From: Candidatus Aenigmatarchaeota archaeon
GTDB lineage: Archaea > Aenigmatarchaeota > Aenigmatarchaeia > GW2011-AR5
Reading direction: 5' to 3'
DNA length: 64,000 nucleotides
Assembly (NCBI GenBank): GCA_016187335.1
Contig: JACPJW010000001.1
Coordinates: 704,001-768,000 of the forward strand
Part shown: positions 3,185 through 37,147 of the stretch, piece after piece
Layout of the letters: every line of letters begins with the position of its first letter
Numbering within the stretch: position 1 is the stretch's first letter
The notes under the pieces: generated by a model
What the model was told of the DNA's origin: nothing
The model's database searches: none
Seen by the model: only the letters and a program-made list of their open reading frames with translations
Program-made: the position numbers and the translations under genes

Positions 3185-3233
3185 CTTAATATTTTTCTTT
3201 CCGCAGGCGCTTTCTTTTCCAAAAAGAAAGGGC
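3185..3233 (-). repeat. Family-B hairpin repeat, intergenic copy directly after the rpoA2 stop
   Basis: GCCCTTTCTTTTTGGAAAAGAAAGCGCCTGCGGAAAGAAAAATATTAAG closely matches the tRNA-Tyr 59/60 and tRNA-Thr D-loop introns. Confidence 0.85.
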
Positions 3234-5711
3234 CTATTTTTTCTTCTTCATCTTTGACAAATCCATCGTGAGCTCGACCATGCCCGTGCCGATGGGTGCC
3301 AGCTGCCCTACCAGCACGTTCTCGATTATCCCGTCCATGGTGTCCTTCTCGCCGTAGAACGACGCGTTTATCAGGTGCCTTTTTGTTTCCTCAAAGTTCG
3401 CCCGCGCCAGGACGGACGCCTTTTTGCCGGATACGCCGTATCGCCCGATGTCCCTGACCTCCCCGGTGAATGTCATGATGTCAGCAAGAAGCATCAGATG
3501 CCTTACATCAACCTCAAGGCCCTGCTCGTCTAAGGTTTCCTTGGCTTCCTGCAAAATAACATTTCTCGTGGCTTCTATGCCGAGTATCTCGAAAATCTGG
3601 TGCACGTCGTTCGTCCTTGTCCTTTTTGCGTCAACTTCGTTTATCTGCAGGACCTTTTTCAGGTTAGTCCCTGCGGTCTGTATGACCCAGTCGTCGCCCT
3701 CGCGCACCACGACGACATTCTCTATCCCCTTGATGCCGTCAATGTGCATCTTCAGGACCTTGTTTTTTATTTTTCTGAGGTTCTTGACGTCGCTTTCCTT
3801 CGGCTTTATGTAGACATTCCCGCCCCTGAAGGAAATGGCCGCCTCTTTGACGTATTTGGAGACCATTGATTTGAGCTGCTCTTTGTGCTTTTCGCCCTCA
3901 AGCTCCAGCTCAATCTGCATGTCAATAAGGTCTATGGAATCGGAAAGTATCACATCTTGCACTTTTACGGATTTCATCCTGTTCGCAATTTCCTTTGCCT
4001 TTTCCTTGCTGTTGTATTCTTCTTTCAGGTAAATGATCATGTTCTTCTCAAAAGTCTTGCGGGCGTCAAAAATCTCTATGAGCCTCGGCAGGCCCTGCGT
4101 GACCTTGCTCAGCCTGTCTGACTGCGAAGCCAGCGTATAGGAACGCATTGTGTTGTGTGTAATAATGCCTTCAAATGTCGTGAATGTTTCCGTGCCTTCA
4201 ACCGTCAGATCGTAGACATATCCAGAAGAAGGCAAAACTTCTGTTATTTCAGTTATCTCATCCCAAACGACATCAGATGCATGCATCTTTCTGAGTATCG
4301 AAAGCTCTTCAGTCACATCAATGTGATTTTTCTTTGCAATCTCGTTGAATAATACAATATATCTAAGTAGGGCTTCTTTTCCAATTTTCTGCCTTTTTGT
4401 GAAGCTGTTTACATACCTGCTTGGATAACTCAGTTTCTTCGCAAGCTTTGGAAGCAGATCGTCGAAGCCGCCTACAAGCTCGACAAAATCTTGCTTGATG
4501 GGTTTGCTAGCACACAGTACTCCAAGATTCTCGGCCTTTTTGGCGGAACTAAACCCGATTTTTTGCCGGAATACAGATGCGTATTTTGCGGGTATTGTTA
4601 GTGTATATTGCTTGCCTCTTCCTTTGTAAGAGAATATGCCAAATCTCGCTAAGAGTAGTGAGATGCCGTCTATAAGCTCTTTTGAATTTGAAGAAGCCCT
4701 TATTACGCCTCTCTCGACAGATACATTCCCATCGCCGTCGAAATAAGCCTGCAAAAGCGCCGATACGAATTTCTCATCAGCACTGTACGCAAAATCAGGG
4801 ACTCTCTTGTTCCTTGATCCACTACCGCATGTTTTTGCAAGTAGGGCGGAAAGAATAGCGGAATTTACATGAATATCATGGCCGTTTGCAAATCCTCTTG
4901 TGTTGTCATATTCATTATAGGTCAGGCCGAATGAAGAGGCAAATTGTCTTATTCTCCCGAGGAAAATTTCATTTGTGCTTGATATGCATACAAAATTCGG
5001 AGTGCAGTTTCCTTCGGAGAGATAAGCGCCGAAAATATATCCCGTAACCTCATTCAGCGGAAAGATTTCCGGCAAAGGCTTTTTGGCACGTGAAAAATGG
5101 GTTTCTGCAATCGATTTTAGGTTAATAGAATCTATGCAGTTTTCAGGAAGCAGCTTGATTACCGGTATTCTCTCGCCTTTTCTCAGGTCTTTTCCGGAAA
5201 CAGCAACTATCTTGTTATGCTTTCTTATAACAAATGAATGAGAATCTGTGGCTATTATCTCGCGCCCTGACAGTGTTCTTATTCTCAGCAGCCTTTCCGG
5301 TGATTTGTGTCTGCTGCATGCAAGAACCTTTTTCCATTCGATTTTCTCCCCCTGATTTATGCTGGGAACGTATATTTCCATGCCCGAAAGATCGCATATA
5401 TCCCAGCCATTCTCGTTCATAGAACCCAGATTTTCTATTGATTCATCGGTAAAGCGGCTAATTTCAGAAATGGCAACCCGGTCTTTATGCTTGATAATTA
5501 TTTTTTCCTTGGCGTCAATGCTCATCTGCGTCGCCGGTTCGCTGATTGATTGCGCTGCAACGACGCCTATTGCCTCGCCGGGTTCGTAAAGGTATTTCAC
5601 GATAAGATGATTTAATTTTTCCAGCAGTTCTTCTTTTTTCTTCCCTTCAATCCCGTGCTTCCTGCAGTATTCCTCGAATTTCAGCAACACTTCCTTTGAA
5701 AGATAAGCCAT
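3234..5711 (-). CDS. rpoA2: DNA-directed RNA polymerase subunit A'' (Rpo1C), intein-containing precursor
   Basis: EPGEAIGVVAAQSISEPATQM, GLPRLIEI, DVRHLMLLAD and SVLARANFEE. Confidence 0.97.
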   Translation of the reverse strand: MAYLSKEVLLKFEEYCRKHGIEGKKKEELLEKLNHLIVKYLYEPGEAIGVVAAQSISEPATQMSIDAKEKIIIKHKDRVAISEISRFTDESIENLGSMNENGWDICDLSGMEIYVPSINQGEKIEWKKVLACSRHKSPERLLRIRTLSGREIIATDSHSFVIRKHNKIVAVSGKDLRKGERIPVIKLLPENCIDSINLKSIAETHFSRAKKPLPEIFPLNEVTGYIFGAYLSEGNCTPNFVCISSTNEIFLGRIRQFASSFGLTYNEYDNTRGFANGHDIHVNSAILSALLAKTCGSGSRNKRVPDFAYSADEKFVSALLQAYFDGDGNVSVERGVIRASSNSKELIDGISLLLARFGIFSYKGRGKQYTLTIPAKYASVFRQKIGFSSAKKAENLGVLCASKPIKQDFVELVGGFDDLLPKLAKKLSYPSRYVNSFTKRQKIGKEALLRYIVLFNEIAKKNHIDVTEELSILRKMHASDVVWDEITEITEVLPSSGYVYDLTVEGTETFTTFEGIITHNTMRSYTLASQSDRLSKVTQGLPRLIEIFDARKTFEKNMIIYLKEEYNSKEKAKEIANRMKSVKVQDVILSDSIDLIDMQIELELEGEKHKEQLKSMVSKYVKEAAISFRGGNVYIKPKESDVKNLRKIKNKVLKMHIDGIKGIENVVVVREGDDWVIQTAGTNLKKVLQINEVDAKRTRTNDVHQIFEILGIEATRNVILQEAKETLDEQGLEVDVRHLMLLADIMTFTGEVRDIGRYGVSGKKASVLARANFEETKRHLINASFYGEKDTMDGIIENVLVGQLAPIGTGMVELTMDLSKMKKKK
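4152..5522 (-). mobile_element. Intein (457 aa) with a LAGLIDADG homing endonuclease, in RpoA''
   Basis: Inserted between TQM and TMR; starts with Ser (SIDAKEK), ends GIITHN before Thr+1; block B ATDSHSF; motifs GYIFGAYLSEG and ALLQAYFDGDG; visibly more AT-rich than the exteins. Confidence 0.95.
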
Positions 5712-5756
5712 TTTTAATCACCATCATCAGGGCTGAACTTTATTTTTAACATTGTT

Positions 5757-8237
5757 TTATTTCACGCCGTGGAAAAGCTTTTCAATGTCAACCTTGCCCG
5801 CGTCGCTTTTGGCGGGGTCAACCATGTCCTCGCCCGCGACAAACTGTATGATAAAGTTCTTGCTGTCGCGCACGGTGCCGTCGTATTCCACTCTCAGGTC
5901 CTGCAGCGCGTTGACCAGGCGGCGCTCCATGTACCCGGAGTGCCTTGTGTGCAGCGACTTGTCCATCAGGTTCTCCCTGCTGTTCATGGCGTCAAAGAAA
6001 AACTCCACGGGGTCAAGACCTTTCTTATAGCCGCTCGAAACGAAGCCGTGGGATTTCGCGCCAAGGTCGCCTCTTTCAAACAGCGACAATGTCCTTCCCA
6101 CGAAGCCCCTGTGTATCCTCTCGCCTTCCAGGGCCTCCTGCCCGACAAACGCGCACATCTGCGTAAGGTTGACAAAGGAGCCTCTCGCGCCTGTTATAGC
6201 CATTATGACCGCTGTCGTCAGAGGCAGGTCTTTCTTGACGGTTTCTGACGCGCTGTTTGACGCGAGGCCGCCTAATTGCAGTATTTTGTTTTCCAGGGTC
6301 ATCTCCGGCGTCAGTCCCCCTGTCTTTTCAAGGCGGCCTGCTTTGTAGTCCCTGACCAGCCTCGAAATGCTTTCGTTGTACTCATCAATTACTTTTTCAA
6401 TATTGTTTTTCGCGCGCGTTGAAATGTCTATGTCGCCGACGGATATGCTGAATCCTTTCCTTGTGATGACTTCCAGGGCGAGCTTGGAAACCCTGTCGAT
6501 GAATTCCCTCGCTGCGGAGTGGCCGTATATCCTTTCTATTATGTCGATGAGCTTTGCTTTTTTCTCTCCCAGCGCGTCGTCATCAATGACGCCCCTGAGA
6601 AGCCGCCCGTTCTTTATCACGACAGCTTCACCTGTGGACGACTTGAATTCAATGCTCAGGTCTTTCGGCAATAAGTAAGAAAAAATCTCCTTTCCCGTGT
6701 AGGTATCCTTGACCTCAGGGAGCTCCATCCCTATAGACATCAGCAGCTCCGCGGCTTCTTTTCGGCTGAGCTTTGTCTCGTCCCTTGTAAGCAGATAAGA
6801 GCCGGTTATGTGGTCGTGCTTGCACGCAACTATGGGCAGCCCGTATCGCGGCGAGCGGATGTGGTTTTCCACGGCCATCAGCATCTCCGCTTCCGTCTGC
6901 GCTTCCTCTGTCTGCGGAACGTGCAGGTTCATTTCGTCGCCGTCAAAGTCCGCGTTGTATGGTATCGTCACCGCGAGGTTCAGCCTGAAAGTCCTGTAAG
7001 GCATGATGCGCGCGCGGTGGCCCATCATGCTCATGCGATGCAGCGACGGCTGCCTGTTCATGACCGTTATGTCGTTGTCCTGCAGATGGCGCTCCACGAC
7101 GTAGCCGGTATCAATCTCTTCCGCTACGTCTTTTTTGTTTTCCTCTGTTATTTTTTTTCTTATCCCGTCCGGCCTCACGACATAATTCGCGCCCGGATGC
7201 ACGCCCGGCCCGTTAAGTATGTATTTCTTGACGGCATCAAGGCTGTTTTTCGTCACCTTCACGGGAACGGTAAGCTCTTTCGCGATTTCCATGGGTATTC
7301 CCACTTCGCTTATTGAAATATTGGGGTCCGGCGTGACAACGGTTCTCGCGGAAAAATTAACACGCTTTCCGGAAAGGTTTCCGCGGAACCTCCCCTCTTT
7401 TTTGCTCAGCCTCTGCATCAGCGTTTTCAGCGCCCTGCCTGACCTGTGGCGCGCCGGCGGCAGCGTTGAAATCTCGTTGCTCATGAACGTTGAGATGTGG
7501 TATTGCAGTAATTCCCAGATGTCGGCGATGATAAAATCAGGCGCGCCGATTTCCAGATTTTTCTTCAGTCTTTCGTTTATCCTTACGACGTCAACCAGCT
7601 TGTGCGTCAAGTCATCTTCCGAGCGTTCGCCTGTTTCCAGGGTGATTGAAGGGCGCACGGTCACGGGAGGCACGGGCAGTATGGTAAGGACAAACCATTC
7701 AGGCCTTCCGCCTTTCACCCTGAGCAGCTGTAAATCTTCATCAGTGATTTTTTCCAGCCGCTGCCTTATTTCCTCGGGATTCATCTCTGTGCTGCCTTCG
7801 TTGAATGTGGTCGGCTTCTGGAACGTCAGCTCCCTTTGCTTTTCGCCGCAGTGTATGCACATCTTCGGCTTCTTCTTGTACAGTTCGTTGAGCGGGTTGC
7901 CCATCTTCTTCAGGTCTTCCAGCTTCGCCAGCGGACGCGAGCATTTCCTGCATATCGAGCGCAGCACCATAAAAATCTTTTTTCCGTACAGCGGGTGTAT
8001 TGCCGGCTTCGTCAACTCAAGGTAGCCGAAATGCCCCAGGCATTGCCCTATGGAGCCGCCGCACGTCCTGCACCGCAGGCCGGGGTCGACAACGCCGAGG
8101 TGCAGGTCAGTCAGCCCGCCGTCTATCGGGTAGCCGTCAGGATCGTAAAGCTCCGCGTGCTCAATCTTCACCGCCGACATTTCCTTAATCATGCGCGGCG
8201 ACAGGAATCCGAACTCGATTGCTTTTACTTTTGCCAT
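5757..8237 (-). CDS. rpoA1: DNA-directed RNA polymerase subunit A' (Rpo1N)
   Basis: Catalytic NADFDGDEMN, NRQPSLH, GKRVNFSAR, clamp Zn motifs. Confidence 0.98.
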   Translation of the reverse strand: MAKVKAIEFGFLSPRMIKEMSAVKIEHAELYDPDGYPIDGGLTDLHLGVVDPGLRCRTCGGSIGQCLGHFGYLELTKPAIHPLYGKKIFMVLRSICRKCSRPLAKLEDLKKMGNPLNELYKKKPKMCIHCGEKQRELTFQKPTTFNEGSTEMNPEEIRQRLEKITDEDLQLLRVKGGRPEWFVLTILPVPPVTVRPSITLETGERSEDDLTHKLVDVVRINERLKKNLEIGAPDFIIADIWELLQYHISTFMSNEISTLPPARHRSGRALKTLMQRLSKKEGRFRGNLSGKRVNFSARTVVTPDPNISISEVGIPMEIAKELTVPVKVTKNSLDAVKKYILNGPGVHPGANYVVRPDGIRKKITEENKKDVAEEIDTGYVVERHLQDNDITVMNRQPSLHRMSMMGHRARIMPYRTFRLNLAVTIPYNADFDGDEMNLHVPQTEEAQTEAEMLMAVENHIRSPRYGLPIVACKHDHITGSYLLTRDETKLSRKEAAELLMSIGMELPEVKDTYTGKEIFSYLLPKDLSIEFKSSTGEAVVIKNGRLLRGVIDDDALGEKKAKLIDIIERIYGHSAAREFIDRVSKLALEVITRKGFSISVGDIDISTRAKNNIEKVIDEYNESISRLVRDYKAGRLEKTGGLTPEMTLENKILQLGGLASNSASETVKKDLPLTTAVIMAITGARGSFVNLTQMCAFVGQEALEGERIHRGFVGRTLSLFERGDLGAKSHGFVSSGYKKGLDPVEFFFDAMNSRENLMDKSLHTRHSGYMERRLVNALQDLRVEYDGTVRDSKNFIIQFVAGEDMVDPAKSDAGKVDIEKLFHGVK

Positions 8238-8238
8238 G

Positions 8239-8562
8239 TCAATCCCTCATCTTAATGCCGGTTTCTTTTCCAAGAAATCTTCTCTCTTCTGCTGTCAGAT
8301 CCATTCTTGTCATTCCTGTTCTTTCCACCAGTCTTTCTATTTCTGCTTCGGCGTATTCCAAAAGAGGCCCGGTAGCAATTACAGCAAGCTGTTCTTTGTC
8401 TCTTTGAATCAGGGACACGCTGTACCTTTCTGCAATCAGCTGCGCAAAATATCTTCCCGCGTCAGGGTGTTCCACCAGTCTGATACCTGCTATTCCCTGG
8501 GCAAATCTCCTGACTCCTTCCGGAATTTCTTCATTCCAATGATAAATGTCAGCATTGAACAT
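8239..8562 (-). CDS. Hypothetical protein between rpoB and rpoA1
   Basis: 107-aa co-oriented ORF with 1-2 nt gaps on both sides. Confidence 0.7.
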   Translation of the reverse strand: MFNADIYHWNEEIPEGVRRFAQGIAGIRLVEHPDAGRYFAQLIAERYSVSLIQRDKEQLAVIATGPLLEYAEAEIERLVERTGMTRMDLTAEERRFLGKETGIKMRD

Positions 8563-8564
8563 GC

Positions 8565-11500
8565 TTATTCCTCCGCGATTATCTTCGGGTATATTCCCAG
8601 GGACTTCAGCTCGTCCAGCATCAGTTTGAACGCGTAGCTGATGTCAATGTCAATGATTTTTGATTTCTTGCATACGCCGCAGTATTTTTTGCCCTTGACG
8701 CGGTCTTCCACGGCGATCAGGCCGCAGCGCTCGCATACGGGCACGCTGTATTTGTCGCTGCTGAAGCGCTCTTTGAGCAGGAGGGCGCTGCCATGAGCGA
8801 TTAAGCAGTCCTTTTCCATTTCCCCCAGGCGCAAGCCGCCCTGCTTCGCCCTTCCGGCAGTAGGCTGCTTGGTCAGCAGCGTTACAGGCCCGCGGGCTCT
8901 GGACTGTATCTTGTTCGCAACCATATGATGCAGCTTCTGGTAATAGCACGGCCCTACAAGTATGCGCGCCTCGAGCACGCGCCCTGTCACGCCGTCGTAC
9001 ATTATTTCCTTGCCGTCGTCGCGGAACCCGAGCTTTTCCAGTGTCTGTCTCAGGCTTTCTTCCGTGACGTCGTTGAAGGCGGAGCCGTCCACGGGCATGC
9101 CTGATAATGCCGAGACTTTCGAGGCGATGATTTCAAGCATCTGGCCTATTGTCATCCTGCTCGGTATCGCGTGCGGGTTGACTATTATGTCAGGCGTGAT
9201 GCCGCCCGTTGTGAATGGCATGTTTTCTTCAGGCACGATCAGGGATATGACTCCTTTCTGGCCGTGGCGCGACGCGAACTTGTCGCCAAGTTCCGGCACC
9301 CTTTCGCTTCTGACGTTCACTTTCACTAGTTTGTTTCCTGCCGACGTTTCCGAGAGGAATACGCCGTCAACAATGCCGTCCTCGCCGTGCCTTATCGTTT
9401 CCGATGTTTCCCTGCGGTTCTCTGTCTCGGCCATAAAGCTTTCCACGGGCCCGATGAAGCGGAGCGGCGACACCTTGCCGACAAGAACATCTCCGGAAAT
9501 GACAGAAATTTCCCTGTTCACTATCCCGTCCTTGTCGAGGTTTGCGTAAGCTTCCTCGGTGCGGTAGCCGTTGACGGCCTTGTCCGGTATTTTTATCTCG
9601 TCCTTTTCAATGCCCCAGTATTTCTTTTCTTCCGTTGAGTACGCCCTGAAGAAGAACGAGCGGCCGAAGCCCCTGTCGAGCGAAGCCTTGTTGAATACCA
9701 GGCCGTCCTCCATGTTGTACCCCTTGTAGCTCATGATGGCAAGGACGATGTTCTGGCCCTGCGGGTGCTCTTCCAGTCCGATTTCTTTGCCGACGACCGT
9801 GTTCACCAAAGGCATCTGCGTGTAAACAAGGACGTCCGCCTTCGTTTCTGTTCTTATTGAAAAGTTTGTCGTGTAAATGCCCAGCGCCTGGCCGGACATC
9901 TTCGCGCCGAAGTTGACGCGGTCCCCCCTGTTCCTCGTAGGGAACGGGACAAGCGATGCCGACAAGCCTAAAATCACGCCCGGGTGCACTTCCAGGTGCG
10001 TGTGGTCTTTTGACAGGTTATCCGCAGTCAGCGCAACAAGCATGCTGTCTTCTTCCTGGGCGTCTAGATATTCCACGATGCCTTCCTTCAGCAGCTCGCC
10101 CCACGCCATCTCGCCATTTACCAGCTTTTCCAGGTGCTTTTCAGTCAGCCTTGCTTTCCCGTTTTCAACAATAATCATCGGCCTTTGCAGCCTTCCTGAA
10201 TCCGTGTTCACGAAAACCTCCTGGAAATCCTCCTCAACGGCAACATTGATGTAGCGGCTTATCGCGCCGTTTCTTCTCTTCTGCTTTATTTTTTCTGCGA
10301 ATTCCCTGGGCTTGTCCGTCGTGCCTATGATATTCCCGTTAAGGAAAATAGTGTACCCGCCGCTCTCCTTTGACGCCGTTTGCGCGATGAGCTCGTTGTC
10401 CTTTCGCGGCGCTGTATCGGAGATGACGGCAAAGGTGGCTAAATACTTGCGGAGGCCTATGTTGACGCCTTCGGGAGTTTCCTCGGCGCACAGCCTTCCC
10501 CAGTGCGTTGCGTGCAATGCCCTCGCTTCAAAGTGCTCCTGTGAGGACGACAAAGGCGATATGACGTTTCTCAGGTGGGCTATTGTTCTCACGTAATTTG
10601 TCCTTTCCAGCCGCTGGCAGACGCCCGTCCTGCCGCCGATCCACTGGCCCGTCGCCATGTGCGAAATAATCCTTTTTGTCAGGTAATCCGACTCCACTAT
10701 GGATTTTATTGAAGGCAGCTTTCCGCGCTTCACCAGTTTCTGGTAAGAATAAACTATCCTTGAAACCAGGCCGTACTTGCCGAGGAGGATTGAGCGGAAA
10801 AGTATTTCCATGAAATCCCCGACGAGGCGCAGGCGCTTGTTTGAATAATGGTCAATGTCCTGCTCCTTCGCTTTTTTCAGGCCCAGGCGCAAAAGCTTTC
10901 GGACAACCTTGCAGAGGTAAACTGCCTTTTCTTTTCTTGCCTTCTTGTCCTGGCCGATGTGGGGAAGCAGGTATTTGTCCAGGATGTCGTTCACGCGCTT
11001 GTCGCGGTATTCCTGCTGAGGTATCTTCAGCTTCTTCCCTAAATGGTCCTTCGCTTCCTCGACGCTCTTGACGTCGTATTCATACAGGTTGAAGTAAATT
11101 TCCTGGACCTCGTCCTTTTCACCGGTTATGGCCTCGATTATCTCTTTGTCCGTCTCCATTCCCAGAGCGCGAAGGAGCACTACTACAGGCAGTTTTTTCA
11201 GGTTGGCAAAGGAAATTGTTATGATGCCCCCTTTCCTTTCCAGGAGATGCCTCTGGACGAAGCCGGACGACTCGCTGTTGATGCGGGCGGTTTCGTTCTC
11301 CCCCTTTGTCTCGATGACGGGCCTGTTCGACAGGACTTCTTCCACCATCACGATTACGCGCTCGGTTCCGTTGATAATGAAATAGCCGCCCGGGTCGTTA
11401 GGGTCTTCGCCCTCTTCAGCCAGCTGCTCTTCGGTGAGCCCTTCAAGCCAGCACAGCTTTGATTTCAGCATTATGGGCAGATCCCCGAGTTTTACTTCCT

Positions 11501-12316: not shown

Positions 12317-12658
12317 TGGGCCCGACGGGAAATTCGAAGCACGTTGCCACGACATGCTTATTCGAACCCGCGACAGGCGGCTATCTTTCAAGGAGAAGAA
12401 ACGGAACAGCTTGAAGCACTTCGTGCTTCGGTTTCCTTCCTCTCCTTTGAACCTCATTTCCTCATATTACCGAACGAATTCGGCTTCGGATCTTTTATCT
12501 TTTTGATCAAACTTTTTTCCAAAAAGTTTGCATGATAAAAGGCCGCTACTCTACCAGGTTTCTCGCAACCCCAGTCTTCCTGTAATATCTTCGCATGTTC
12601 TTTGGGACATGCAAAGACCTTTCTTACAAGAAAGGGATTTGCACTGAGCTACAGGCCC
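12317..12658 (-). tRNA. tRNA-Lys(UUU) with three introns: 15/16 (12559-12643), 37/38 (12383-12535), 59/60 (12331-12360)
   Basis: Removing the three segments leaves a 74-nt cloverleaf: acceptor GGGCCUG/CGGGCCC, anticodon arm GCGGC-CUUUUAA-GCCGC, UUCGAAU T-loop; BHB-like geometry at each junction. Confidence 0.9.
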
Positions 12659-12659
12659 G

Positions 12660-12879
12660 CGCCTTGGCCGGGATATTCGGAACTTTCCCTTTTCCTCGAA
12701 GAACGTTAGTTCTTCGGGATCTTGGAGAACTTTCGTTCTCCACAGATGATTGAACTTTTTGGAAAAGTTCATTCGAACCCGGGTCGTAGCCGTTCTATGA
12801 TTTTTCCGTTGACGCTTTTGCTCGCCAGCGGAAAAGGGTCATGACAGGGCTACATGCTAGACCGCTACACCACCAAGGC
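12660..12879 (-). tRNA. tRNA-Asp(GUC) with two introns: 37/38 (12793-12841), 59/60 (12674-12771)
   Basis: 73-nt mature cloverleaf, acceptor GCCUUGG/CCAAGGC, G73; strict BHB at 59/60 (UUCG/CGAA central helix). Confidence 0.92.
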
Positions 12880-13266: not shown

Positions 13267-13382
13267 GGTCAGCAACGTCCTGGCGTTCACAGCTTTCGCC
13301 ATTACTTGCCATATCGCTGGAGAGCTTAACTTCCAGGTTCGGAATGGATCTGGGTGTGCCCTCTCCGCCTTGGTCGCCAACC
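13267..13382 (-). rRNA. rrf: 5S rRNA, not linked to 16S/23S in this window; ends approximate
   Basis: CCCAGATCCATTCCGAACCTGGAAGTTAAGCTC core; terminal helix GGTTGGCGAC/GTTGCTGACC. Confidence 0.92.
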
Positions 13383-13528: not shown

Positions 13529-13719
13529 CCCGCGATAGCTCAACGGTAGAGCGCCCGGCTGTAGCTTAGCACTGCAGAACAAAGCTGTGTTATGATTCAG
13601 CAGCCGCTCACTAGAAACCGGGAGGTTGCCGGTTCGAAAGACCCTTTTCTTTTGGAAAGAAAAGCGTCTACGGAAAAGAAAATATTAAGGAAAGGGGTCC
13701 GAAACTCCGGCTCGCGGGA
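13529..13719 (+). tRNA. tRNA-Tyr(GUA) with two introns: 37/38 (13565-13616), 59/60 (13639-13705)
   Basis: C1-G72 acceptor CCCGCGA/UCGCGGG, A73, anticodon arm CCCGG-CUGUAGA-CCGGG; strict BHB at 59/60. Confidence 0.92.
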
Positions 13720-19337: not shown

Positions 19338-19540
19338 GCCACGCTAGCTCAGTAAGCCCTTTTCTTGGAAAGAAAAGCGCTTGCGGAAAAAGAACATATT
19401 AGGAAAAGGGCTGGAGAATGGTAGAGCGTTAGTGAAATGACACCGCTAAACCTTGGTAAGGAACTTTTCAAAAAAGTTCCATCAAAACGGAAAAACCAAC
19501 AAAGAGGTAAAGGCCCCGAGTTCGATCCTCGGGCGTGGCT
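19338..19540 (+). tRNA. tRNA-Thr(GGU) with three introns: 16/17 (19354-19418), 28/29 (19431-19449), 37/38 (19459-19504)
   Basis: 73-nt mature cloverleaf, acceptor GCCACGC/GCGUGGC, U73, anticodon arm UUACC-UUGGUAA-GGUAA; AGCG/CGCU central helix at 28/29. Confidence 0.88.
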
Positions 19541-28828: not shown

Positions 28829-28890
28829 AAGTAATCTGTTCAATGCCGGAATTGAGCCTCGGATGACCGGCAGAGATGCTCAAGCCACCG

Positions 28891-29829: not shown

Positions 29830-29919
29830 TCCTGCTCGTTACGGGTTCACTTCTTCGCTTTGATGCCTGGTTCATGTGGCACGTCGCGGATTCATCAGTG
29901 AGCCCCCAGAGCCCATAGA

Positions 29920-30519
29920 TCATTTCGCGTGGTGCGCTGTTGACATGTCGCCGACGGCAGAGTAGACTCGGCCGGCCTTCACCAGATCTCGGTACGGAAT
30001 GTTGATCTGAGGGCACTCGTGGATTCCCAGGAGGTGTGCGATTTCGTCATTCTTGCGCGTGCCATCAGTCGGTGAATACGCGAAGGTTTCTATCTCCACG
30101 AACCAACCCAGAGGCTCGACCATATCGAGAGCTACGATGCTGTCTAGGTCAGCCCTGAAAACCAAACGATGCTTCTTGACCGCAACGTATTCGACGAAGT
30201 CTAACTGCCTGAGCATCAGGCGGATCTTATCGCTCTGACCGGTTATGTCCACGTTAATTTCCTGTTTCCAATACTGGCCACGCTCGCGCATTGCTCTTGA
30301 GGTGGGGGGCTTCCACGTGACTTGCTCAAACGTAGGCGTAATGCGAACCCTGAGACATTCCTCCGTCTTGATGAAGTCGTTGTGCTTTGATGTATAGTAT
30401 ATGTCTTCCTGGTCCTCCCGCTCAGTTTGTTTCCATCCCAATTCAGCGAGTTTTGCCATTAACGAACTGGCATCTGCTCCAACGTACAACTTCATCTCAA
30501 TTTCTTTTCTGTTTGCCAT
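29920..30519 (-). CDS. CYTH-domain protein (class IV adenylate cyclase / triphosphate tunnel metalloenzyme)
   Basis: N-terminal EIEMK, QEDIYY, LRVR, KHR, LGWFVEIE, C-terminal PYRDL. Confidence 0.9.
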   Translation of the reverse strand: MANRKEIEMKLYVGADASSLMAKLAELGWKQTEREDQEDIYYTSKHNDFIKTEECLRVRITPTFEQVTWKPPTSRAMRERGQYWKQEINVDITGQSDKIRLMLRQLDFVEYVAVKKHRLVFRADLDSIVALDMVEPLGWFVEIETFAYSPTDGTRKNDEIAHLLGIHECPQINIPYRDLVKAGRVYSAVGDMSTAHHAK

Positions 30520-30532
30520 TGATTACCATCTC

Positions 30533-31861
30533 CTAAGACTGTGGTTGGTTGGGATTCGGGGGCTCTTGATAGGCTGCGTTGCGGAATACCGCAAACTGGT
30601 ATATCCCGCGGATTGTGTTCATTTCAAACAGGTTCGCTTTCTCCGTGGTGCCAGTTAGTGCAGCGAACTCATTCCGGCTTAGGAAGTGCCGACCGGCGTC
30701 GCGTAGGAACTTCAGGTAGTAGCGGTGCCGCACTCTCCCCCACGTGCTTTCGAACTGTGGGTCCATAATTTCGATAATGCACGATATCTTGCCGACTCGG
30801 ATCACTTCATTAATCAGGGTCTTGACGGCGCGCACGTTCTCCATGTGATGTAGTACATTCTTGCAGAGCACAAAGTCGAAGTGGTTGTCACCAAATGGGA
30901 GGCGTCGCGCGTCATGATTAGTAAACAGGATGAATGAGCTGATATTGCGGAACGTAGGGCTACTAAATCGTTCGCTCATGAGCTTGATCTGGCTCCACGA
31001 CACATCGTTTCCGACCACTAGCCGCACACCGGGTAGCTGTGTAAACCTGAGAACGGCGGTATTCTCGCCGCACGCTACGTCAAGTATCGTGTCATGCTTG
31101 CACGCCTGCGTGATTTCGAGGATCTTGGCTTCTAGATCCTGGATCGAGTGCTGGAAGTGGAACCGCCCCAACGATCTGAAGAGGGGCTTCACCACCGCAT
31201 CGTGGAATGCGTAGCGGGATCCGTATTTTATGTTCTCTTCAACCTCGAACTCCGGGACCGAGTCGAGGTCCAGGCTACGGACGTAACTGCGAGCTAGTTC
31301 TACTACGGTTTTGTTGTGCAGCAGACCAACTGGAACCGAGGTATCCTCGCACGGGACCAGATGCCCTCTCGAATGGACGGCGGCCTTGAGGTCCTGCTGT
31401 GGATCCATGTTTCTGATTCGGCCCACAAATGCTATGCCGCGGTGGAAGTGTTCCCGTCCCTCGTAGCGGAAGCGATTCTCGAGGAAGGCGATGGGTTCTA
31501 CCTCGCCCAGTTGCAGGTTTCTGATAGTCTTGGACGCATGGCGGTTGGCGGCATCGATGAAGGTTTCCGTCAAGTCTCTTCGAAGACTGCCGCCGACCAG
31601 GACCCACGCGAGTTGGTTGCTCGCAAAGGATCGTTCTAATAGGAATTCTTTGTGTTTAGTATATGGTAGCATGAGCACGAAATAGCGGCGCGCCAGACAG
31701 TACTCGAACGAATACCTGTCCTGCAGGGTGACCTCATGTTGGATGCGCGGAGCTGACGCATACAGCTCGGTGTAGACCGAGTACAGATCGTCGAGATACG
31801 CATCGGTGTCTTGAAACGCCCGATACGCTATGCGTTCACGGCCCGACGACACTTCTGGCAT
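30533..31861 (-). CDS. Degenerate Nudix-like domain fused to a class I SAM-dependent methyltransferase
   Basis: FLLERSF..WVLVGGSLRRDLTETFIDAANR (Nudix-like); ILDVACGENT, GNDVS, DARRLPFGDNHFDFVLCKNVLHH; start re-chosen at MPEVSS (the ORF is open to 32164). Confidence 0.8.
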   Translation of the reverse strand: MPEVSSGRERIAYRAFQDTDAYLDDLYSVYTELYASAPRIQHEVTLQDRYSFEYCLARRYFVLMLPYTKHKEFLLERSFASNQLAWVLVGGSLRRDLTETFIDAANRHASKTIRNLQLGEVEPIAFLENRFRYEGREHFHRGIAFVGRIRNMDPQQDLKAAVHSRGHLVPCEDTSVPVGLLHNKTVVELARSYVRSLDLDSVPEFEVEENIKYGSRYAFHDAVVKPLFRSLGRFHFQHSIQDLEAKILEITQACKHDTILDVACGENTAVLRFTQLPGVRLVVGNDVSWSQIKLMSERFSSPTFRNISSFILFTNHDARRLPFGDNHFDFVLCKNVLHHMENVRAVKTLINEVIRVGKISCIIEIMDPQFESTWGRVRHRYYLKFLRDAGRHFLSRNEFAALTGTTEKANLFEMNTIRGIYQFAVFRNAAYQEPPNPNQPQS

Positions 31862-32238
31862 CTTCCAGGCCCTTGCTCCCTCGGAAGCCCGTTTGTCCCC
31901 CGCCGCGTCTATAATACCATAGGCTAGCGTTGCCGCAAGTTTGGGCCTTTGAGCCTTAGGCTCAGGTATGGGCCCTTGGCTTGGATTCGCCGAGCCTACA
32001 TTGCCCGCGCCAAGGCCGTCATTGGCGTCTGCTGAGGCCCGCCAGCCTTGCCGCCGCATAAGGGCGACATCTGTGTGAATCAAAGCTAGCGCGAAGCTGG
32101 AATCCGTGGGACGGGATGGTGCTGCGTGATGCGGAGAGATGAGCTGCATGCACATTATTTGCACTGAAAGCTTTTGAGTGTTTCCCGTGGCGGGTGATTG
32201 TAAGCTTTTGTCCTGAGCGGCTGTGACTGTTCTGATAA

Positions 32239-32278
32239 GAGGGTTCCGGAAATTTCCTTACATGTGATGGACGAGCAG
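32239..32278. repeat. 40-bp direct repeat, right copy
   Basis: GAGGGTTCCGGAAATTTCCTTACATGTGATGGACGAGCAG. Confidence 0.9.
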
Positions 32279-32389
32279 CCACTCAGCAGTGACGATAAAC
32301 AGGATCTCCACGAACCGCATGCAATGCCGCAGTAGTAAGTAAGTAATTACTCAAAATCATCGGTGCCCCGAGCACCTTTCAGCTAAACT

Positions 32390-32659
32390 TCAACGTGCAG
32401 TCATCCGGCTGGTTTCTGATTCTTTGTTCCCTCCGTTCACGAGGTCATCAATACCTATGAGGAGAAAGCAGATTCCCAAGACAGCGCTGAACGCCACCTC
32501 TAGCCACCACTGAAAGGGGATAGGTAGGCCTCTGAAAGACTGATCGATTATGAATTCGCCGGTTTCCGCGGCATACCTGAATAGAACAAACGAGAATCCT
32601 ATGTGGGCAAGCGCCGAGACCAACCAGCGGTTGGCACGGAGCCATCCAGCGGAGAACAT
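32390..32659 (-). CDS. Small two-TM membrane protein inside the element
   Basis: Two hydrophobic segments; 89 aa. Confidence 0.55.
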   Translation of the reverse strand: MFSAGWLRANRWLVSALAHIGFSFVLFRYAAETGEFIIDQSFRGLPIPFQWWLEVAFSAVLGICFLLIGIDDLVNGGNKESETSRMTAR

Positions 32660-32701
32660 AGTGGTACTATTTCTAGCGCAACCTTCTTAAAGCGTTAACG
32701 T

Positions 32702-33457
32702 TCAGCACCCGCTCCGGCCCAGTGGCAAGTAAATGCTTATGGTCGAAATTTGTACGCCTACTGTGACGCGAGCAGCAAAGCGTCTACACGCCTGAAACTG
32801 CCTCGTGACGGATCGAGGGCTTCCCCCCGGTCGCTCTGGCGGCCCAACGGCGCTGGTAGCCTCCGCCACACCAGAAGCCTCGACTATATAAGACCCCGGC
32901 GTCACCCCATAGACCACGAAGTTGGTCGGGAAGTGTGAGAGTGTCTCGGTGTGAATGAGATTCCCATGCTGCCCGAAAATGTGGACGCCGATTGGCTTCA
33001 GGATGCTTCTATCCGCCCCCGTTACGGTAACCCGTAGCTGATATGCAATGTCGACGGTGGGCCTCTGCGGAGGACCCTGTACTACCACCCAGTTCCCAAA
33101 ATATACGGCCATCGTTGTACTTTTGCCTTCAGGGTCCCGGCTGTAGTTCACGGTACCTCTGTAGCCAACTCTGATTCTAAGGGCTACCGCAGCTGGAGCT
33201 TCAACAGAAAAATTCGCCGGACGGCTGTCACCTGGGGGGACGATGCCAAGATCCTCGAAATCACGCGGGACAGGTGTCGGAGATGAAGACGAGCAATGTG
33301 TTCTATTTGCTGGAGATGGATCTGGCTCCTGAACAAGAACGGGCGTTGGTAGGCCTCGGGTTTGGCTGGTTCCTGGAACTGCGCGAGCGATGGCGACGTG
33401 CCAAAGAGCCGGCAACTGAATGGCAGGGTCGTGCACAGGGGCGCTAAGCCGCAGCAA
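32702..33457 (-). CDS. Hypothetical beta-rich protein, possibly an Ig-like fragment; start uncertain
   Basis: VVYGVTPGSYIVEASG resembles carboxypeptidase-regulatory-like beta sandwiches; the N-terminal third looks non-coding. Confidence 0.35.
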   Translation of the reverse strand: MLRLSAPVHDPAIQLPALWHVAIARAVPGTSQTRGLPTPVLVQEPDPSPANRTHCSSSSPTPVPRDFEDLGIVPPGDSRPANFSVEAPAAVALRIRVGYRGTVNYSRDPEGKSTTMAVYFGNWVVVQGPPQRPTVDIAYQLRVTVTGADRSILKPIGVHIFGQHGNLIHTETLSHFPTNFVVYGVTPGSYIVEASGVAEATSAVGPPERPGGSPRSVTRQFQACRRFAARVTVGVQISTISIYLPLGRSGC

Positions 33458-33502
33458 AGAACCTGCGTGTTGGGAATCAAACTTCGGAGCAGTCCTTTAC
33501 TT

Positions 33503-34774
33503 CTATCGTCTCTTTGCCAGCTTCCGGAGTTCTTCCCGCCGCCTCACCCTGAGCAGTTCCTCGTTCGACATCGCCGCCATCTTCATGAGCGTAGGAAGGG
33601 CTCCTTGGATTTCCTTGACTTGCTTCAGCGTAGATGCCATGTCAGAGAACTCCAGGGAGAAGTTGCAGTTCTCACAGATCCTCGCCTCGGGACTGTTGAA
33701 CGCCTTGCAGTTCCAGCATAACAGAGGCTTTTCCAGCTCCTTCCTTATCTCATCCTCCGGCCGGAGCAGCCCATGTCGTTTGAGGATGGCCTCCTCGACG
33801 TCACGGTTGCTCATGTGCAGGTAGACCTCGAAGTGCTTACTGGTCGGAGTATGCCCCGTGATCCTCTTTACGATCTGATCCGGGTACTGCTGCACCAGGT
33901 GAGTCGTCCTGGAGTGACGCAGGATGTAAGGGTAAACCTTCTTCATAACGCCCGCGCGGCGTGCTATACCCTTCAGCATGCGGTTGAGTGCAGCCACGCC
34001 GATAATCTCGTCGTGCCGTGGATTCGCCTTCTGACGCAGCCATAGCAGCGCGTCAGGGTTCGCTCTGAGTGGGTGGATGTTTATCCATGCCCGGAGGTAC
34101 GTCGCAGCGTTGATTATGCGGATGGGCCGCGGCCTCGTCTTGCTGTGCTGGATGTGGACAACAGCACCGTACGGGTCAAAGGTCACATTCCCGATTCTCA
34201 ACGTCAGCAGCTCAGAAGGACGCGCAGCTGTCTCGTAAGCCACACTGATGAGAGCTTTGTCTCTCGTGTTCGTCGCCGTGGCGATCAGGCGTTCAACCTC
34301 ATCTACATCAAGGGTCTGACCTTCTTCCACCCTCGACTTTTTCGCATTGCTGGGAACCGACGTGCGGAGCCACTCGAAATCCCTTGGATTATACTTGCTT
34401 CCCTTGAGCCACTTGACGAAGACTTTCAGCCCAGCCCTCATGTCCGCCCTGTACCATTCGGAACAGAGAGCTGGCTTCTCATCGGCACGGCTGGCTGCGC
34501 CATGCGGTGGCTCCCTTTTCGTGAGGTCGTTCAGCCGGCCTACAAGGCGCCGAAAGTCCCGAACGCTGTACTTGTCGACGTCCTTCCCGAGCAAAGGGCC
34601 AATCCGAAGAAAGAGAAAGGCGTACTTCCTCATTCTGGCCGCCGAAACGCGCGCCGACATGTCATCGAGGAAATCCAGAATGAGCCGGCGGTTTCTTCGG
34701 GGCAGGTCGGACTCCTGAATCTCGCGCCTCCTCTTCTCGAATTCCTCCTTGTGCTTGTAGATCTGGACCTCCAT
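33503..34774 (-). CDS. Tyrosine recombinase/integrase with a C-terminal Zn ribbon
   Basis: TAARPSELL (R), SKT (K), YILRHSR, ITGH, EVYLH (Y), CWNC...CENC; start MEVQIY with a GAGG Shine-Dalgarno. Confidence 0.92.
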   Translation of the reverse strand: MEVQIYKHKEEFEKRRREIQESDLPRRNRRLILDFLDDMSARVSAARMRKYAFLFLRIGPLLGKDVDKYSVRDFRRLVGRLNDLTKREPPHGAASRADEKPALCSEWYRADMRAGLKVFVKWLKGSKYNPRDFEWLRTSVPSNAKKSRVEEGQTLDVDEVERLIATATNTRDKALISVAYETAARPSELLTLRIGNVTFDPYGAVVHIQHSKTRPRPIRIINAATYLRAWINIHPLRANPDALLWLRQKANPRHDEIIGVAALNRMLKGIARRAGVMKKVYPYILRHSRTTHLVQQYPDQIVKRITGHTPTSKHFEVYLHMSNRDVEEAILKRHGLLRPEDEIRKELEKPLLCWNCKAFNSPEARICENCNFSLEFSDMASTLKQVKEIQGALPTLMKMAAMSNEELLRVRRREELRKLAKRR

Positions 34775-34830
34775 ATTCCCTCTTATTGCCCGCCCAATAT
34801 TTAAGGGTTCGGCATCGAACAGTTTTCCAA

Positions 34831-34991
34831 TGCCGAAGGCGAGAATCGAACTCGCGACCCCCACATTTCTCTTCAACGCGCATGCCGCTCAGAACTCATA
34901 ATTTTCAATTTCTTTGGTCTTTCTTTGGTCAAACTTTCTTTTCAAGAAAGTTTGTTATGAGTGTGGTGCTCTACCACTGAGCCACTTCGGC
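34831..34991 (-). tRNA. tRNA-Met(CAU), elongator-type (or Ile2), with a 37/38 intron (34867-34955)
   Basis: G1-C72 acceptor GCCGAAG/CUUCGGC, anticodon arm CCACA-CUCAUAA-UGUGG; the intron contains a family-A hairpin. Confidence 0.9.
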
Positions 34992-35041
34992 TTTCCGTTT
35001 TGATCAAACTTTTTTGAAAAGTTTGACTGAGCCACTTCGGC
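34992..35041 (-). repeat. Exact duplicate of the first 16 nt of tRNA-Met (35026-35041) followed by a family-A hairpin (34992-35025)
   Basis: ACTGAGCCACTTCGGC occurs at 34976-34991 and 35026-35041. Confidence 0.9.
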
Positions 35042-35100
35042 ACAAAGAGCAGAACCTGACGGTTCTCTCTCTTGACTCTCATTCCCTTATTATTTCTTGG

Positions 35101-35122
35101 TGCAACTTTTTGGAAAAGTTGC
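35101..35122. repeat. Family-A hairpin repeat, intergenic
   Basis: TGCAACTTTTTGGAAAAGTTGC. Confidence 0.75.
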
Positions 35123-35174
35123 CTCTATCCTCTTTTCCTTATTATGATTTTTAAACGCTTTTATTGAAGTATAA

Positions 35175-35723
35175 ATGATGGACCCGCTTAAATTCCGCGA
35201 ACTGCTGAGGCGCATTGAGTGGAAAAACCTTGCGCTGCTTGCCGTTGCGGTGGCACTCCTGGCGGCGTACTTCAAGCTTTTCATTATAACTGCCCTGATA
35301 GCTTCCGTGATTGCCGCCAGCCTTCTTGTCCAGAAGTTCCAGCTGCGGCTCTTCGGCTTTGAAACGGTAACCTTTTCCACTGTCATCATGGGGGTTGCCT
35401 ACGGCCCCGTGATAGGCGGAATATTCGGCATGGCCATGGTCCTTGTATCCCTGGTCATATCCGGATATTTCGGGATATACTATCTGTGGATCATACCCGA
35501 ATATGCCGTGGCCGCTTACCTTGCGTCGCAGTGGTACGGCGGCGACATACTTTCAGTGGGGCTGAACATAACGATTATCCTGCAGGTTGCAAACATCGTG
35601 CTCACCTATTTCTTTGACCGCTACAGCTTTTTCCAGCACATCGTTTACAGCGCGACGAACATTGTTTTCAATTTTGCCGCATTTGCTTTGTTCGGCCCTG
35701 TGCTCGTGGGCATCCTGAAATGA
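35175..35723 (+). CDS. Multi-TM membrane protein, ECF S-component-like, paralog 1
   Basis: FETVTFSTVIMGVAYGPVIGGIFG; about six TM helices. Confidence 0.7.
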   Translation: MMDPLKFRELLRRIEWKNLALLAVAVALLAAYFKLFIITALIASVIAASLLVQKFQLRLFGFETVTFSTVIMGVAYGPVIGGIFGMAMVLVSLVISGYFGIYYLWIIPEYAVAAYLASQWYGGDILSVGLNITIILQVANIVLTYFFDRYSFFQHIVYSATNIVFNFAAFALFGPVLVGILK

Positions 35724-35751
35724 ATTAAAGCTGTATCGTTCAGTTATTTTC

Positions 35752-36282
35752 ATGGCCGAACTGCTTTCGCGGATAGAATGGAAGAACGTCGCGCTGCTTG
35801 CCGCGGCCCTGGCTTTGGTAGCTGTCTACGCCAAATTATTTGCGGTTGTCCTGCTCATCGCCGGTGTTGTTTTTGTGAGCTTCATTGTCCAGCAGTTCAG
35901 CCTGCGCACGGTAGGCCTTGAGCTCGTGACTTTTGCGACGGTTGTTTCCGGCATTGTCTACGGCCCTGTCGTGGGCGCGGCGCTGGGAGCGGTTCTGGTC
36001 CTGATACATCTTGTTTTCTCGGGTTATTTTGGTGTATATTATTTCTGGGTCATACCTGTTTACGCCTTTGGCGGCTTTCTGGCGTCAGCATGGTCAGGCC
36101 AGGGCGTGGTTTCTTTGGGCATCAACATAACCCTGGTCATCCACGCGATAAACATGGCTTTTACGTTTGCTCTCAACAGGAACAACATGTTCAACTACGG
36201 GCTTTACGCCGTGACAAATGTAGTCTTCAATTTCATTTTGTTCGTTGTTTTCGGCCAGGCTGTCGTGGGCATCCTGAAATGA
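35752..36282 (+). CDS. Multi-TM membrane protein, ECF S-component-like, paralog 2
   Basis: LELVTFATVVSGIVYGPVVGAALG; aligns with paralogs 1 and 3. Confidence 0.7.
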   Translation: MAELLSRIEWKNVALLAAALALVAVYAKLFAVVLLIAGVVFVSFIVQQFSLRTVGLELVTFATVVSGIVYGPVVGAALGAVLVLIHLVFSGYFGVYYFWVIPVYAFGGFLASAWSGQGVVSLGINITLVIHAINMAFTFALNRNNMFNYGLYAVTNVVFNFILFVVFGQAVVGILK

Positions 36283-36345
36283 AGCCGTAGTCTGCATTCA
36301 TGGAAGCTTTTCGTAATTTTTAACCCTTGCGTCCAATTATTTCTG

Positions 36346-36888
36346 ATGGTTGAAAGAATATCGTCCCTGCTGTCGCGCATTGATTGGAAGAACGTCGCGC
36401 TGCTGGCTGCCGCCGTCGCGCTGGCGGCTGCCTACTTCAAGCTCTTTGCCATAGTGTTCTTCATCGCAGCCGTGGTCGCGGTCAGCTTCCTGGTGAACCA
36501 GTTCCACATCCGCATTATTGGCATTGAACTGGTAACTTTTGCCACGGTTATTTCAGGCATCGTTTACGGCCCCGTGGTAGGAGCAGTAATGGGCGCGGTG
36601 CTGGTTTTCATAAGCCTTGTATTCTCCGGGTTTTTCGGGGTTTATTATTTCTGGCTGATTCCGGAATACGCTGCCGCCGGCTACCTGGCGTGGCTCTGGC
36701 GTGACCAGCCTATAGCCGCTCTTGGCATGAACATCCTGCTCATGGTCCAGGGGCTCAATATCGTCCTGACGTACCTGTTCGCAAGGCAGAACTTCTTCAA
36801 GTACGTTGTTTACATAGCCACGGAACTGGTATTTAATTTTATAATATTCTCCGTCTTCGGGGCGTGGGCTCTTGGTGTCCTGGCGTGA
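36346..36888 (+). CDS. Multi-TM membrane protein, ECF S-component-like, paralog 3
   Basis: IELVTFATVISGIVYGPVVGAVMG. Confidence 0.7.
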   Translation: MVERISSLLSRIDWKNVALLAAAVALAAAYFKLFAIVFFIAAVVAVSFLVNQFHIRIIGIELVTFATVISGIVYGPVVGAVMGAVLVFISLVFSGFFGVYYFWLIPEYAAAGYLAWLWRDQPIAALGMNILLMVQGLNIVLTYLFARQNFFKYVVYIATELVFNFIIFSVFGAWALGVLA

Positions 36889-36892
36889 GAAA

Positions 36893-37084
36893 TCAGGCCG
36901 TCACGAGTTCTACGTCCTTCACATCCACGGGCGGCACGACGTAAACGCGGGAGAAATCGTATTCAACGGCGTCGCCCTCGTAAGTTATCTCGCATATGTC
37001 TATGATTATTATCTTGAACTTTATGTCCAGGATTTCTCTTTCAAGGACCTTTTTCTGCGCTTTCACGATTTTCATTTCAATCAT
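36893..37084 (-). CDS. Small hypothetical beta-rich protein
   Basis: 63-aa ORF with host-like codon usage. Confidence 0.45.
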   Translation of the reverse strand: MIEMKIVKAQKKVLEREILDIKFKIIIIDICEITYEGDAVEYDFSRVYVVPPVDVKDVELVTA

Positions 37085-37100
37085 CCGTAGCGTTTTCTTT

Positions 37101-37147
37101 GATAATATTCTTTTCCGCCAGCGCTTTTCTTCCCCAAAGAAAAGGGC
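37101..37147 (-). repeat. Family-B hairpin repeat, intergenic copy
   Basis: GCCCTTTTCTTTGGGGAAGAAAAGCGCTGGCGGAAAAGAATATTATC on the minus strand. Confidence 0.85.

Follow-up and report, generated by a model that had tools for sequence, protein, structure and literature searches.

Related introns at different positions of different tRNA genes have been described in Thermoproteales, each with its own bulge-helix-bulge (BHB) motif and, as far as Fujishima et al. (2010) are summarised in PMC4090602 and in 10.64898/2026.10.13.758758, by a mechanism that is unknown. On how introns arrive at all, PMC4090602 likewise gives the mechanism as unknown, PMC3293823 invokes integrative elements, and an Asgard study of October 2026 (10.64898/2026.10.13.758758), in which copying, mobile elements and reverse transcription were tested, found no general route. 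Here we analyse a window of 64,000 nt (C2:704001-768000) from the 1.01-Mb, 91% complete genome of a Candidatus Aenigmatarchaeota archaeon, in which a short hairpin, family B, is both the core of tRNA introns and a free repeat. The likeness to the transposed introns of Thermoproteales, with their families of at least 80% identity across tRNAs, lies in 12 intron pairs from different tRNAs at 82-96% identity; the difference, as those two summaries describe the introns, is that the core here also lies free in dozens of copies, in rRNA, signal recognition particle (SRP) RNA and RNase P RNA, and at stop codons. With modest confidence we read family B and its sister family A as a non-coding mobile hairpin that is joined at RNA 3′ ends and that seeds or refills BHB introns.

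The initial annotation had placed five copies of family B in the window, and all five sit where it put them. A 16-nt core, AAAGCG-Y-NN-R-CGGAAA, is matched at 3198, 12803, 13661, 19374, and 37112, to be compared with a mean of 0.22 cores and a maximum of 2 in 100 dinucleotide shuffles of the window; the whole genome contains 46 exact matches, and order-5 Markov genomes 0-1. The objection that such similarity might arise by chance, or from hairpins of A and T runs alone, is rejected by these controls and by generic hairpins: 23 of 2998 CTTT..AAAG seeds carry the core where about 0.01 were expected, and hence A/T-run hairpins are no explanation. No Rfam family fits the element.

Six tRNA genes lie in the window where ARAGORN reports none, as these genes hold several introns each, and where Rfam reports two partial ones; such genomes are thus under-annotated. 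A BHB-aware parser written for this analysis finds 35 tRNA genes and 70 introns genome-wide, and it independently recovers the exact limits first proposed for the introns of tRNA-Asp (37/38, 12793-12841) and tRNA-Tyr (59/60, 13639-13705). Each of these two has a canonical BHB, with 4/4 pairs in the central helix and both flanking helices. In tRNA-Thr(GGU), which was parsed by hand, the 16/17 intron lies where it had been located, but its BHB is only relaxed (3/4 central helix, A14.G, outer pair absent). Removal of the introns restores a normal cloverleaf in all three genes, with tRNAs of 72-73 nt, and the genome has genes for EndA (C2:410505-411104) and RtcB. Both the gene caller and the tRNA parser were custom-built, and outside the window a few parses contain errors of detail.

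That one element is both an intron and a free repeat is borne out by the shared sequence. It is not the whole intron, however: instead of an element of about 50 bp coinciding with the intron, the element makes up the 5′ 35-50 nt, and a 3′ add-on provides the closing strand of the BHB. In tRNA-Tyr and tRNA-Thr the full unit runs to an AATATT-like end and is followed by an inverted copy of its 5′ arm and by four bases complementary to the exon, and free copies at stop codons share 92-94% identity with the Tyr intron. The AATATT tail supposed to be common to all copies is present in the free copies and, as an AATATT-like end, in Tyr and Thr, but not in the Asp copy, which is 59-74% like the others. 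The copy at rpoA2 is free, as annotated, but rather than following the stop it overlaps it, the AG of TAG forming the terminal stem pair with a start at 3235; RpoA2 stops at the residue where it also stops in relatives, which lack B in that orientation there. The other free copy, at 37101, is outside any tRNA and directly follows a conserved, structured, RNA-like region. A strict BHB is found at the element start in 19 of 44 tRNA copies and in 10 of 100 copies outside RNA genes. The possibility that free copies are spliced mRNA introns was rejected, these having no closing arm and a BHB frequency near background.

Genome-wide, about 25 B cores lie in tRNA genes (at 37/38, 59/60, 16/17, 20/20a, and in the variable arm), with further copies in 16S rRNA (three, one being a clean BHB intron at C2:241969), 23S rRNA, SRP RNA and RNase P RNA. 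Free loci number about 23, and one copy lies in frame in ProRS, adding about 12 residues compared with a relative. Family A has the same plan, counts 105 copies, and is often nested in the loop of B. Since these counts come from pattern and hidden Markov model (HMM) censuses, they are lower bounds. Of the 70 parsed tRNA introns, A or B is found in 37, and matches to DNA outside RNA genes exist for 34 (0-2 in shuffles). The 16S and 23S genes, separate and about 27 kb apart, contain many inserts, both long ones bearing open reading frames and short A/B hairpins (16S, 3.3 kb; 23S, 4.3 kb; L082, L083, L084; C2:239678-242953, 208273-212555; C1 and C2 are contigs of the genome under study, G000, and L-numbers are other loci or contigs).

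The same overlap between introns and free repeats might be read in the opposite direction, with ordinary BHB introns moving between RNAs by reverse splicing or gene conversion and the free copies being stray, truncated by-products. Different tRNAs do indeed have whole introns that are 83-96% identical, for the most part at 59/60 (Ile/Pro 96%, Arg/Leu 92%, Ser/Tyr 90%), which suggests conversion between tRNAs at that position; excised introns would begin at N1, the first base of the element, and some free A copies carry a closing-arm-like sequence. Yet free B copies end at a defined AATATT and lack the closing arm, the Tyr, Ser, and Thr introns being that unit plus an add-on; free A copies exceed those in RNA genes about 4 to 1; and A is found nested in the loop of B outside any RNA gene. 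We consider this order of events rather improbable, and regard it as likely that the element is a source of new or refilled introns.

The evidence for mobility is good, and A and B are very probably mobile elements. The comparison genome of the same genus, G001, is the only one and is 56% complete, with genes 70-85% alike. In it, tRNA sites and gene ends are empty or differently filled, so that fixed orthologous positions, the second objection foreseen for the annotation, are rejected, and its proposal of a mobile element, one that comes and goes within a genus, holds. The B introns of the genome under study are absent from G001 at Cys 37/38, Val(CAC) 16/17, Ile 20/20a, and a Leu D-loop; Ala(CGC) 37/38 has a B intron in G001 and none here; Ser(GCU) and Pro(CGG) 37/38 differ in family between the two genomes, one having A where the other has B, the 3′ ends being similar; and the Leu(GAG) and Val(UAC) introns are common to both. 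In a wider set of relatives, the Tyr 59/60 intron is absent in 9 of the 9 from the family that were parsed, the Thr D-loop intron in 4 of 6, and Asp 37/38 holds B in 3 of 20, another intron in 9 and nothing in 8. The A/B swaps at 37/38 indicate that older introns may often have been refilled, rather than created, whereas at the patchy D-loop and variable-arm sites a new gain is the simpler reading, losses being possible. Comparison of 352 orthologous gene ends with those of G001 shows 19 that hold a copy in just one of the two genomes and 4 that hold one in each; the stop falls at the same codon in nearly all filled/empty pairs, and one pair shows a clean 56-nt insertion. At one site A took the place of the 5′ half of B, which explains the orphan 3′ halves.

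The examination of target sites, suggested with the annotation, revealed the expected empty orthologous sites but no duplication of fixed length. Of 132 free B copies, 8 lie between direct repeats of at least 14 nt (null 0), and several of these repeats stop exactly at N1; flanking duplications are occasional, of 13-40 nt (about 6% of free B copies), and there is none at the clean insertion. No empty allele was found among the listed joints in DNA contigs of four runs, which drop rare variants and may stem from the source sample.

Landing "in a tRNA" holds for the tRNA copies but is an incomplete description, as placement is not random: it follows the direction of transcription, splice sites, RNA 3′ ends and stop codons. 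Within RNA genes, 50 copies of A and B are sense and 2 antisense, and in RNA genes on the locally minor strand 18 of 18 are sense. Orientation thus follows transcription and not replication; a replication-strand bias is rejected by the same 18 copies, and the GC skew is too flat for an origin to be placed. In 41 of 47 B introns, N1 is no more than 1 nt away from the 5′ splice site. At 13 of the approximately 23 free B loci and in 24 of 77 free A copies, the element starts at -3..+1 of a same-strand stop codon (about 1.2% expected), a peak repeated in metagenome loci. Short spacers do not account for this adjacency, because the stops are native and many of the empty orthologous gaps are long. 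Nor are stops made by the element, with truncation of the protein, a general cause: C-termini match those of orthologues in nearly all filled/empty pairs, one pair having a protein one residue shorter. Several copies lie 0-8 nt 3′ of tRNA and 16S 3′ ends. The shared factor of the insertion sites is the 3′ end, natural or cut, of a host RNA. Some family-A copies fall within the last codons of genes (C1:20399; C2:113685, 480434, 661116, 752079), all in sense, giving element-coded C-terminal tails.

On the sense strand both families follow the plan N1N2-RC-C-CTTT(T)-loop-(A)AAAG-C-GY-N2′N1′-RC-GG plus a purine tail, in 30-50 bp of non-coding sequence. N1N2RC is the exact complement of GYN2′N1′ in 151 of 185 B copies, against 14.6 when shuffled, and hence the stem covaries; a C.C mismatch in it is constant, and the loop sequence varies freely. 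Asymmetry between G.T and A.C in the outer stem was considered as a clue and is uninformative. In 234 of 281 pairs of A copies with identical cores the terminal dinucleotide differs, each time correctly paired. Ordinary compensatory change would hardly give such variation, and we infer that the terminal pair is rewritten at insertion. At C2:419582-419642 three head-to-tail A units have the same core and the terminal pairs TA/TA, AG/TA, and AG/CT, possibly a snapshot of the pair adapting to a new neighbour. The N-N′ dinucleotide is at fixed spacing in 239 of 240 B copies, a set partly pre-selected on spacing, and is exactly 2 nt in 128 of 130 A copies; a fold-back extension of variable length is thus not seen in A. 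The purine tail mirrors the 3′ arm: run lengths of 3-3, 4-4, or 5-5 occur in 42 of the 50 B copies and in all 8 of the A copies with pyrimidine arms. From the sequence, an intramolecular triple helix would have this geometry. Within an intron, the tail can alternatively pair with the 5′ arm, starting the closing helix. Other hairpin families share the stem-plus-purine-tail plan, at the rpoA2 stop in L007, L035, and L002 and in this genome's Lys and Thr(CGU) introns, and A and B may be two members of a larger set.

Family B is present in 51 of 151 genomes of the phylum, grouped by family, with zero matches to a reversed-pattern control. Copies abound in the families designated f22, f16, f17, f19, and f2, and are all but missing from f18, f14, f21, and f20. 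It is also found in many metagenome contigs and in a few viral ones, one of them a virophage, where B lies 3′ of the stop of a Sputnik-like capsid gene (L088:2363-2387). The strict pattern has no match in 31 named genomes of Woesearchaeota, Nanoarchaeota, Thermoplasmata, and other non-Aenigmatarchaeota, and GenBank phages give chance matches only. A-like hairpins are frequent in giant-virus and related contigs (L424-L543) and peak at stop codons; their homology is uncertain because the terminal pairs match in only 40 of 165.

Such hairpins recall the 3′-end signals that follow stop codons in giant viruses. Accordingly, A and B might be an RNA signal selected by the host (for 3′-end protection, for termination, or as a protein-binding hairpin or triplex), kept after stops, tolerated in RNA loops, and spread by local duplication. 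The very high conservation of the stem, a mirror tail that could form a triple helix, and the viral stop-codon hairpins, including the one after the virophage capsid gene, are consistent with this. However, only about 4% of genes carry the element, 19 of the 23 filled gene ends are unshared within the genus, the distribution in the phylum is patchy, the elements replace and nest in one another, and selection does not explain terminal pairs that are freely rewritten. Of all the explanations weighed here, this is the one to which we give least credence.

The anatomy of the hairpin also invites comparison with DNA transposition as in REPs (repetitive extragenic palindromes) or IS200. An HUH enzyme so far unrecognised, perhaps viral, would cut and join the folded single strand at NN^RC, with GY-NN as a changeable guide; insertion would occur into the non-template strand exposed by transcription, and selection would keep the spliceable tRNA copies. 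An imperfect hairpin with a fixed mismatch and a variable loop is what REPs have (PMC8266576); the variable paired dinucleotide at fixed spacing resembles the complementarity of guide and cleavage site; RC stands at both the 5′ edge and the start of the tail and covaries with Y; and one copy is in frame in ProRS, others being in viral contigs. The enzyme itself is where this explanation falters. The only trace of a Y1 transposase in the genome is a broken IS200 fragment with unrelated ends, and no TnpB scores above the cut-off. The TnpA genes of relatives are ordinary IS200 copies, their 15 loci having other end hairpins and not being flanked by A or B. Y1_Tnp does not track B across the 151 genomes (9 of 51 B-positive, 18%, versus 14 of 100 B-negative, 14%, kin not being independent), and the 438 neighbouring open reading frames clustered from 130 metagenome or viral loci include no recurring mobile gene. 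Precision at stop codons and splice sites is, moreover, not easily explained by a DNA enzyme. We regard this route as unlikely, though a serious rival.

The search for a cognate HUH/TnpA(REP) or reverse transcriptase that had been advised was thus run in the genome, its relatives, and the 151 genomes of the phylum, and nothing tracks the element. No A or B flanks were found at the reverse-transcriptase loci of relatives, and no integron integrase was found, the sole tyrosine recombinase of the genome scoring 34.6 against an IntI cut-off of 265. As the enzyme searches are empty, the mover must be an unrecognised or a housekeeping activity, or a visitor.

Joining at RNA 3′ ends is favoured because it accounts together for strand, for precision at splice sites and stops, and for the 3′ linkers, truncated halves and duplications, and we tentatively propose the following RNA-end-guided route. 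A host RNA would be joined by its free 3′ end to the 5′ end of the element, either by RtcB ligation or by a template jump of a polymerase; such an end might be left by EndA, by breakage of a tRNA or rRNA loop, or by cleavage at a terminating ribosome, or it might be the mature one. The chimera would be copied to DNA and written back through homology upstream, leaving variable 3′ linkers, occasional 13-40-nt duplications and 5′-truncated halves. In a single-copy tRNA gene the insert would survive, under selection, in one of three ways: a 3′ add-on would complete the BHB and EndA/RtcB remove the insert, the element would enter an existing intron at its 5′ splice site, or a duplication would rebuild the gene. 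Finished introns might then spread among tRNAs at the same position by conversion.

Several observations weigh against this account. Splicing of the tRNA copies is predicted from sequence only. Antisense copies exist (in tRNA-Arg of L188, in L30e of L003, and one in Ala), most free copies lack flanking duplications, and gains are polarised weakly, since the other genome may have lost copies. Of 132 free copies, 0 carry their upstream flank in inverted copy, so that the route does not account for a closing arm arising in one step. The genome has no reverse transcriptase, and RVT_1 does not track B across the 151 genomes (7 of 51 B-positive, 14%, versus 13 of 100 B-negative, 13%, kin again not being independent); hence the step from RNA to DNA is without a named enzyme. 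It is possible, but in our view doubtful, that A and B form an undescribed class that needs no transposase or reverse transcriptase of its own, host enzymes attaching a hairpin/triplex module to RNA 3′ ends, the target rewriting the terminal pairs, and the product being written back to DNA. If so, such a class would generate introns in archaeal tRNA, rRNA, and mRNA in general.

Table 1. Copies of families A and B, and the tRNA genes that hold them, in the window (positions counted from its first base)
Feature	Positions	Strand	Remarks
Free family-B copy, rpoA2 end	3185..3235	-	Begins on the final two bases of the native rpoA2 stop; BHB-closing arm absent
tRNA-Asp(GUC), two introns	12660..12879	-	37/38 family B; 59/60 (12674-12771) family-A-like composite
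Asp 37/38 intron	12793..12841	-	B at 12801-12841, flush with 5′ splice site, plus 8-nt BHB tail; 4/4 helix
tRNA-Tyr(GUA)	13529..13719	+	Introns at 37/38 (13565-13616) and 59/60
Tyr 59/60 intron	13639..13705	+	Full-length B at 13639-13687 plus inverted closing arm 13688-13705; canonical BHB
tRNA-Thr(GGU), three introns	19338..19540	+	16/17 family B; 28/29 (19431-19449) common to relatives; 37/38 (~19459-19504) family A, 3′ limit uncertain
Thr D-loop (16/17) intron	19354..19418	+	B at 19354-19401 plus closing arm; relaxed BHB, 3/4 helix
Family-A element in tRNA-Met 16/17	34998..35041	-	A at 34998-35025; 16-nt direct duplication 35026-35041; intact tRNA-Met 34831-34991
Free family-B copy	37101..37149	-	3′ end of conserved structured region; same-genus genome holds family A there
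Family-A copy	37393..37420	-	Begins immediately 3′ of ftsZ stop; same-genus site empty

The insertion of A into tRNA-Met (Table 1) is resolved by duplication and not by splicing. The genome's only tyrosine recombinase (33503-34876, -) lies at the 3′ end of this tRNA-Met, and no 3′ tRNA fragment was found elsewhere. Positions 37150-37345 (-), after ftsZ, have a conserved counterpart in the same-genus genome; a long stem is preserved, the folding z is -3.9, and no Rfam family applies; this is probably an unannotated RNA, with B (here) or A (G001) at its 3′ end. The tRNA-Lys(UUU) gene (12317-12658, -) is 342 nt long with three introns, one of which is a 153-nt mosaic of several hairpin repeats; its 30-nt 59/60 intron is also present in some relatives. 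A stand-alone 5S rRNA gene (13267-13381, -) lies between tRNA-Asp and tRNA-Tyr, and RpoA2 (3234-5711, -) contains a LAGLIDADG intein (approximately residues 65-520), which some relatives share and most lack. RpoB has its nearest relatives among Ca. Aenigmatarchaeota genomes (72-80% identity), and we take the host to be a small groundwater archaeon.

The rtcB gene (61176-62674) contains a 29-nt hairpin insert at 62424-62452 (-), with an in-frame stop, that splits the motif D-G-H-x-G-Y-G-F-P. Inserts of 23-32 nt are found in rtcB of four relatives, at the identical codon boundary, in all three frames and with a relaxed BHB (3/4 helix), and some 15 relatives have none. The insert is a candidate mRNA intron; its removal would need RtcB itself, so that it is possibly autoregulatory. 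A literature search on introns in archaeal protein genes returned cbf5 as the sole case.

Among the known mobile hairpins, REPs and REPtrons (PMC8266576, PMC6006769) are similar in having an imperfect hairpin with a conserved mismatch, a variable loop, high copy number, a position after genes, head-to-tail clusters, and occasional in-frame insertion. The differences are several. The conserved GT[AG]G 5′ foot is absent here, where there are 31 different hexamers and GTAG is confined to one variant's antisense strand; no TnpA-REP gene was found in this 91% complete genome, and orientation relative to the transcript is single; and the variable paired terminal dinucleotide, the mirror-repeat purine tail, and the use of about half of the B copies as introns also set the element apart. 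In a classical MITE (a miniature transposable element with inverted repeats), the 3′ end would be an inverted repeat, whereas here it is a tail, and there is no target-site duplication of fixed length. The annotation as a REP or MITE is therefore not sustained: the foot is not conserved, no fixed duplication is made, and no cognate Y1 transposase (TnpA/RAYT) or reverse transcriptase was found.

Rickettsia palindromic elements and the archaeal PATE and MITE-type derivatives of IS200/IS605 are other palindromic repeats that enter RNA genes or coding frames, or that are moved in trans. Unlike these, A and B are much shorter, their ends match no IS200/IS605 found here, and the tRNA copies are framed to be removed and not retained. 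SINE-like retroposons have an A-rich 3′ end, 5′-truncated copies, variable flanking duplications and no coding capacity. A likeness may lie in the 3′ end, and orphan 3′ halves and some duplications are seen, most copies having none; no reverse-transcriptase partner was found, and placement at RNA boundaries is strict. The attC sites of integrons (10.1101/2022.02.06.479319) are likewise hairpins at the stop codons of genes, and family A has AAC...GTT stem ends; in contrast, B lacks these ends, the stems are of about 8-12 bp, the hosts are core genes (rpoA2, ftsZ) and not cassettes, and no recombinase reaches the IntI level.

A literature search for the motif, or for a free repeat as intron core, found no description, most subscription papers being outside the search. 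Placement in one orientation at stops and splice sites, together with rewritten terminal pairs, is unlike described REPs, MITEs, and IS200/IS605, and implies an RNA-aware insertion activity. In this one genome, a repeat that is also found free lies within over half of the tRNA introns and offers a concrete candidate source for new archaeal introns. As a single genus allows comparison of sites that are filled, empty, swapped, or resolved by duplication, the question of intron origin becomes testable. The element is REP-like in form and, in its outcome, like the introns of Thermoproteales.

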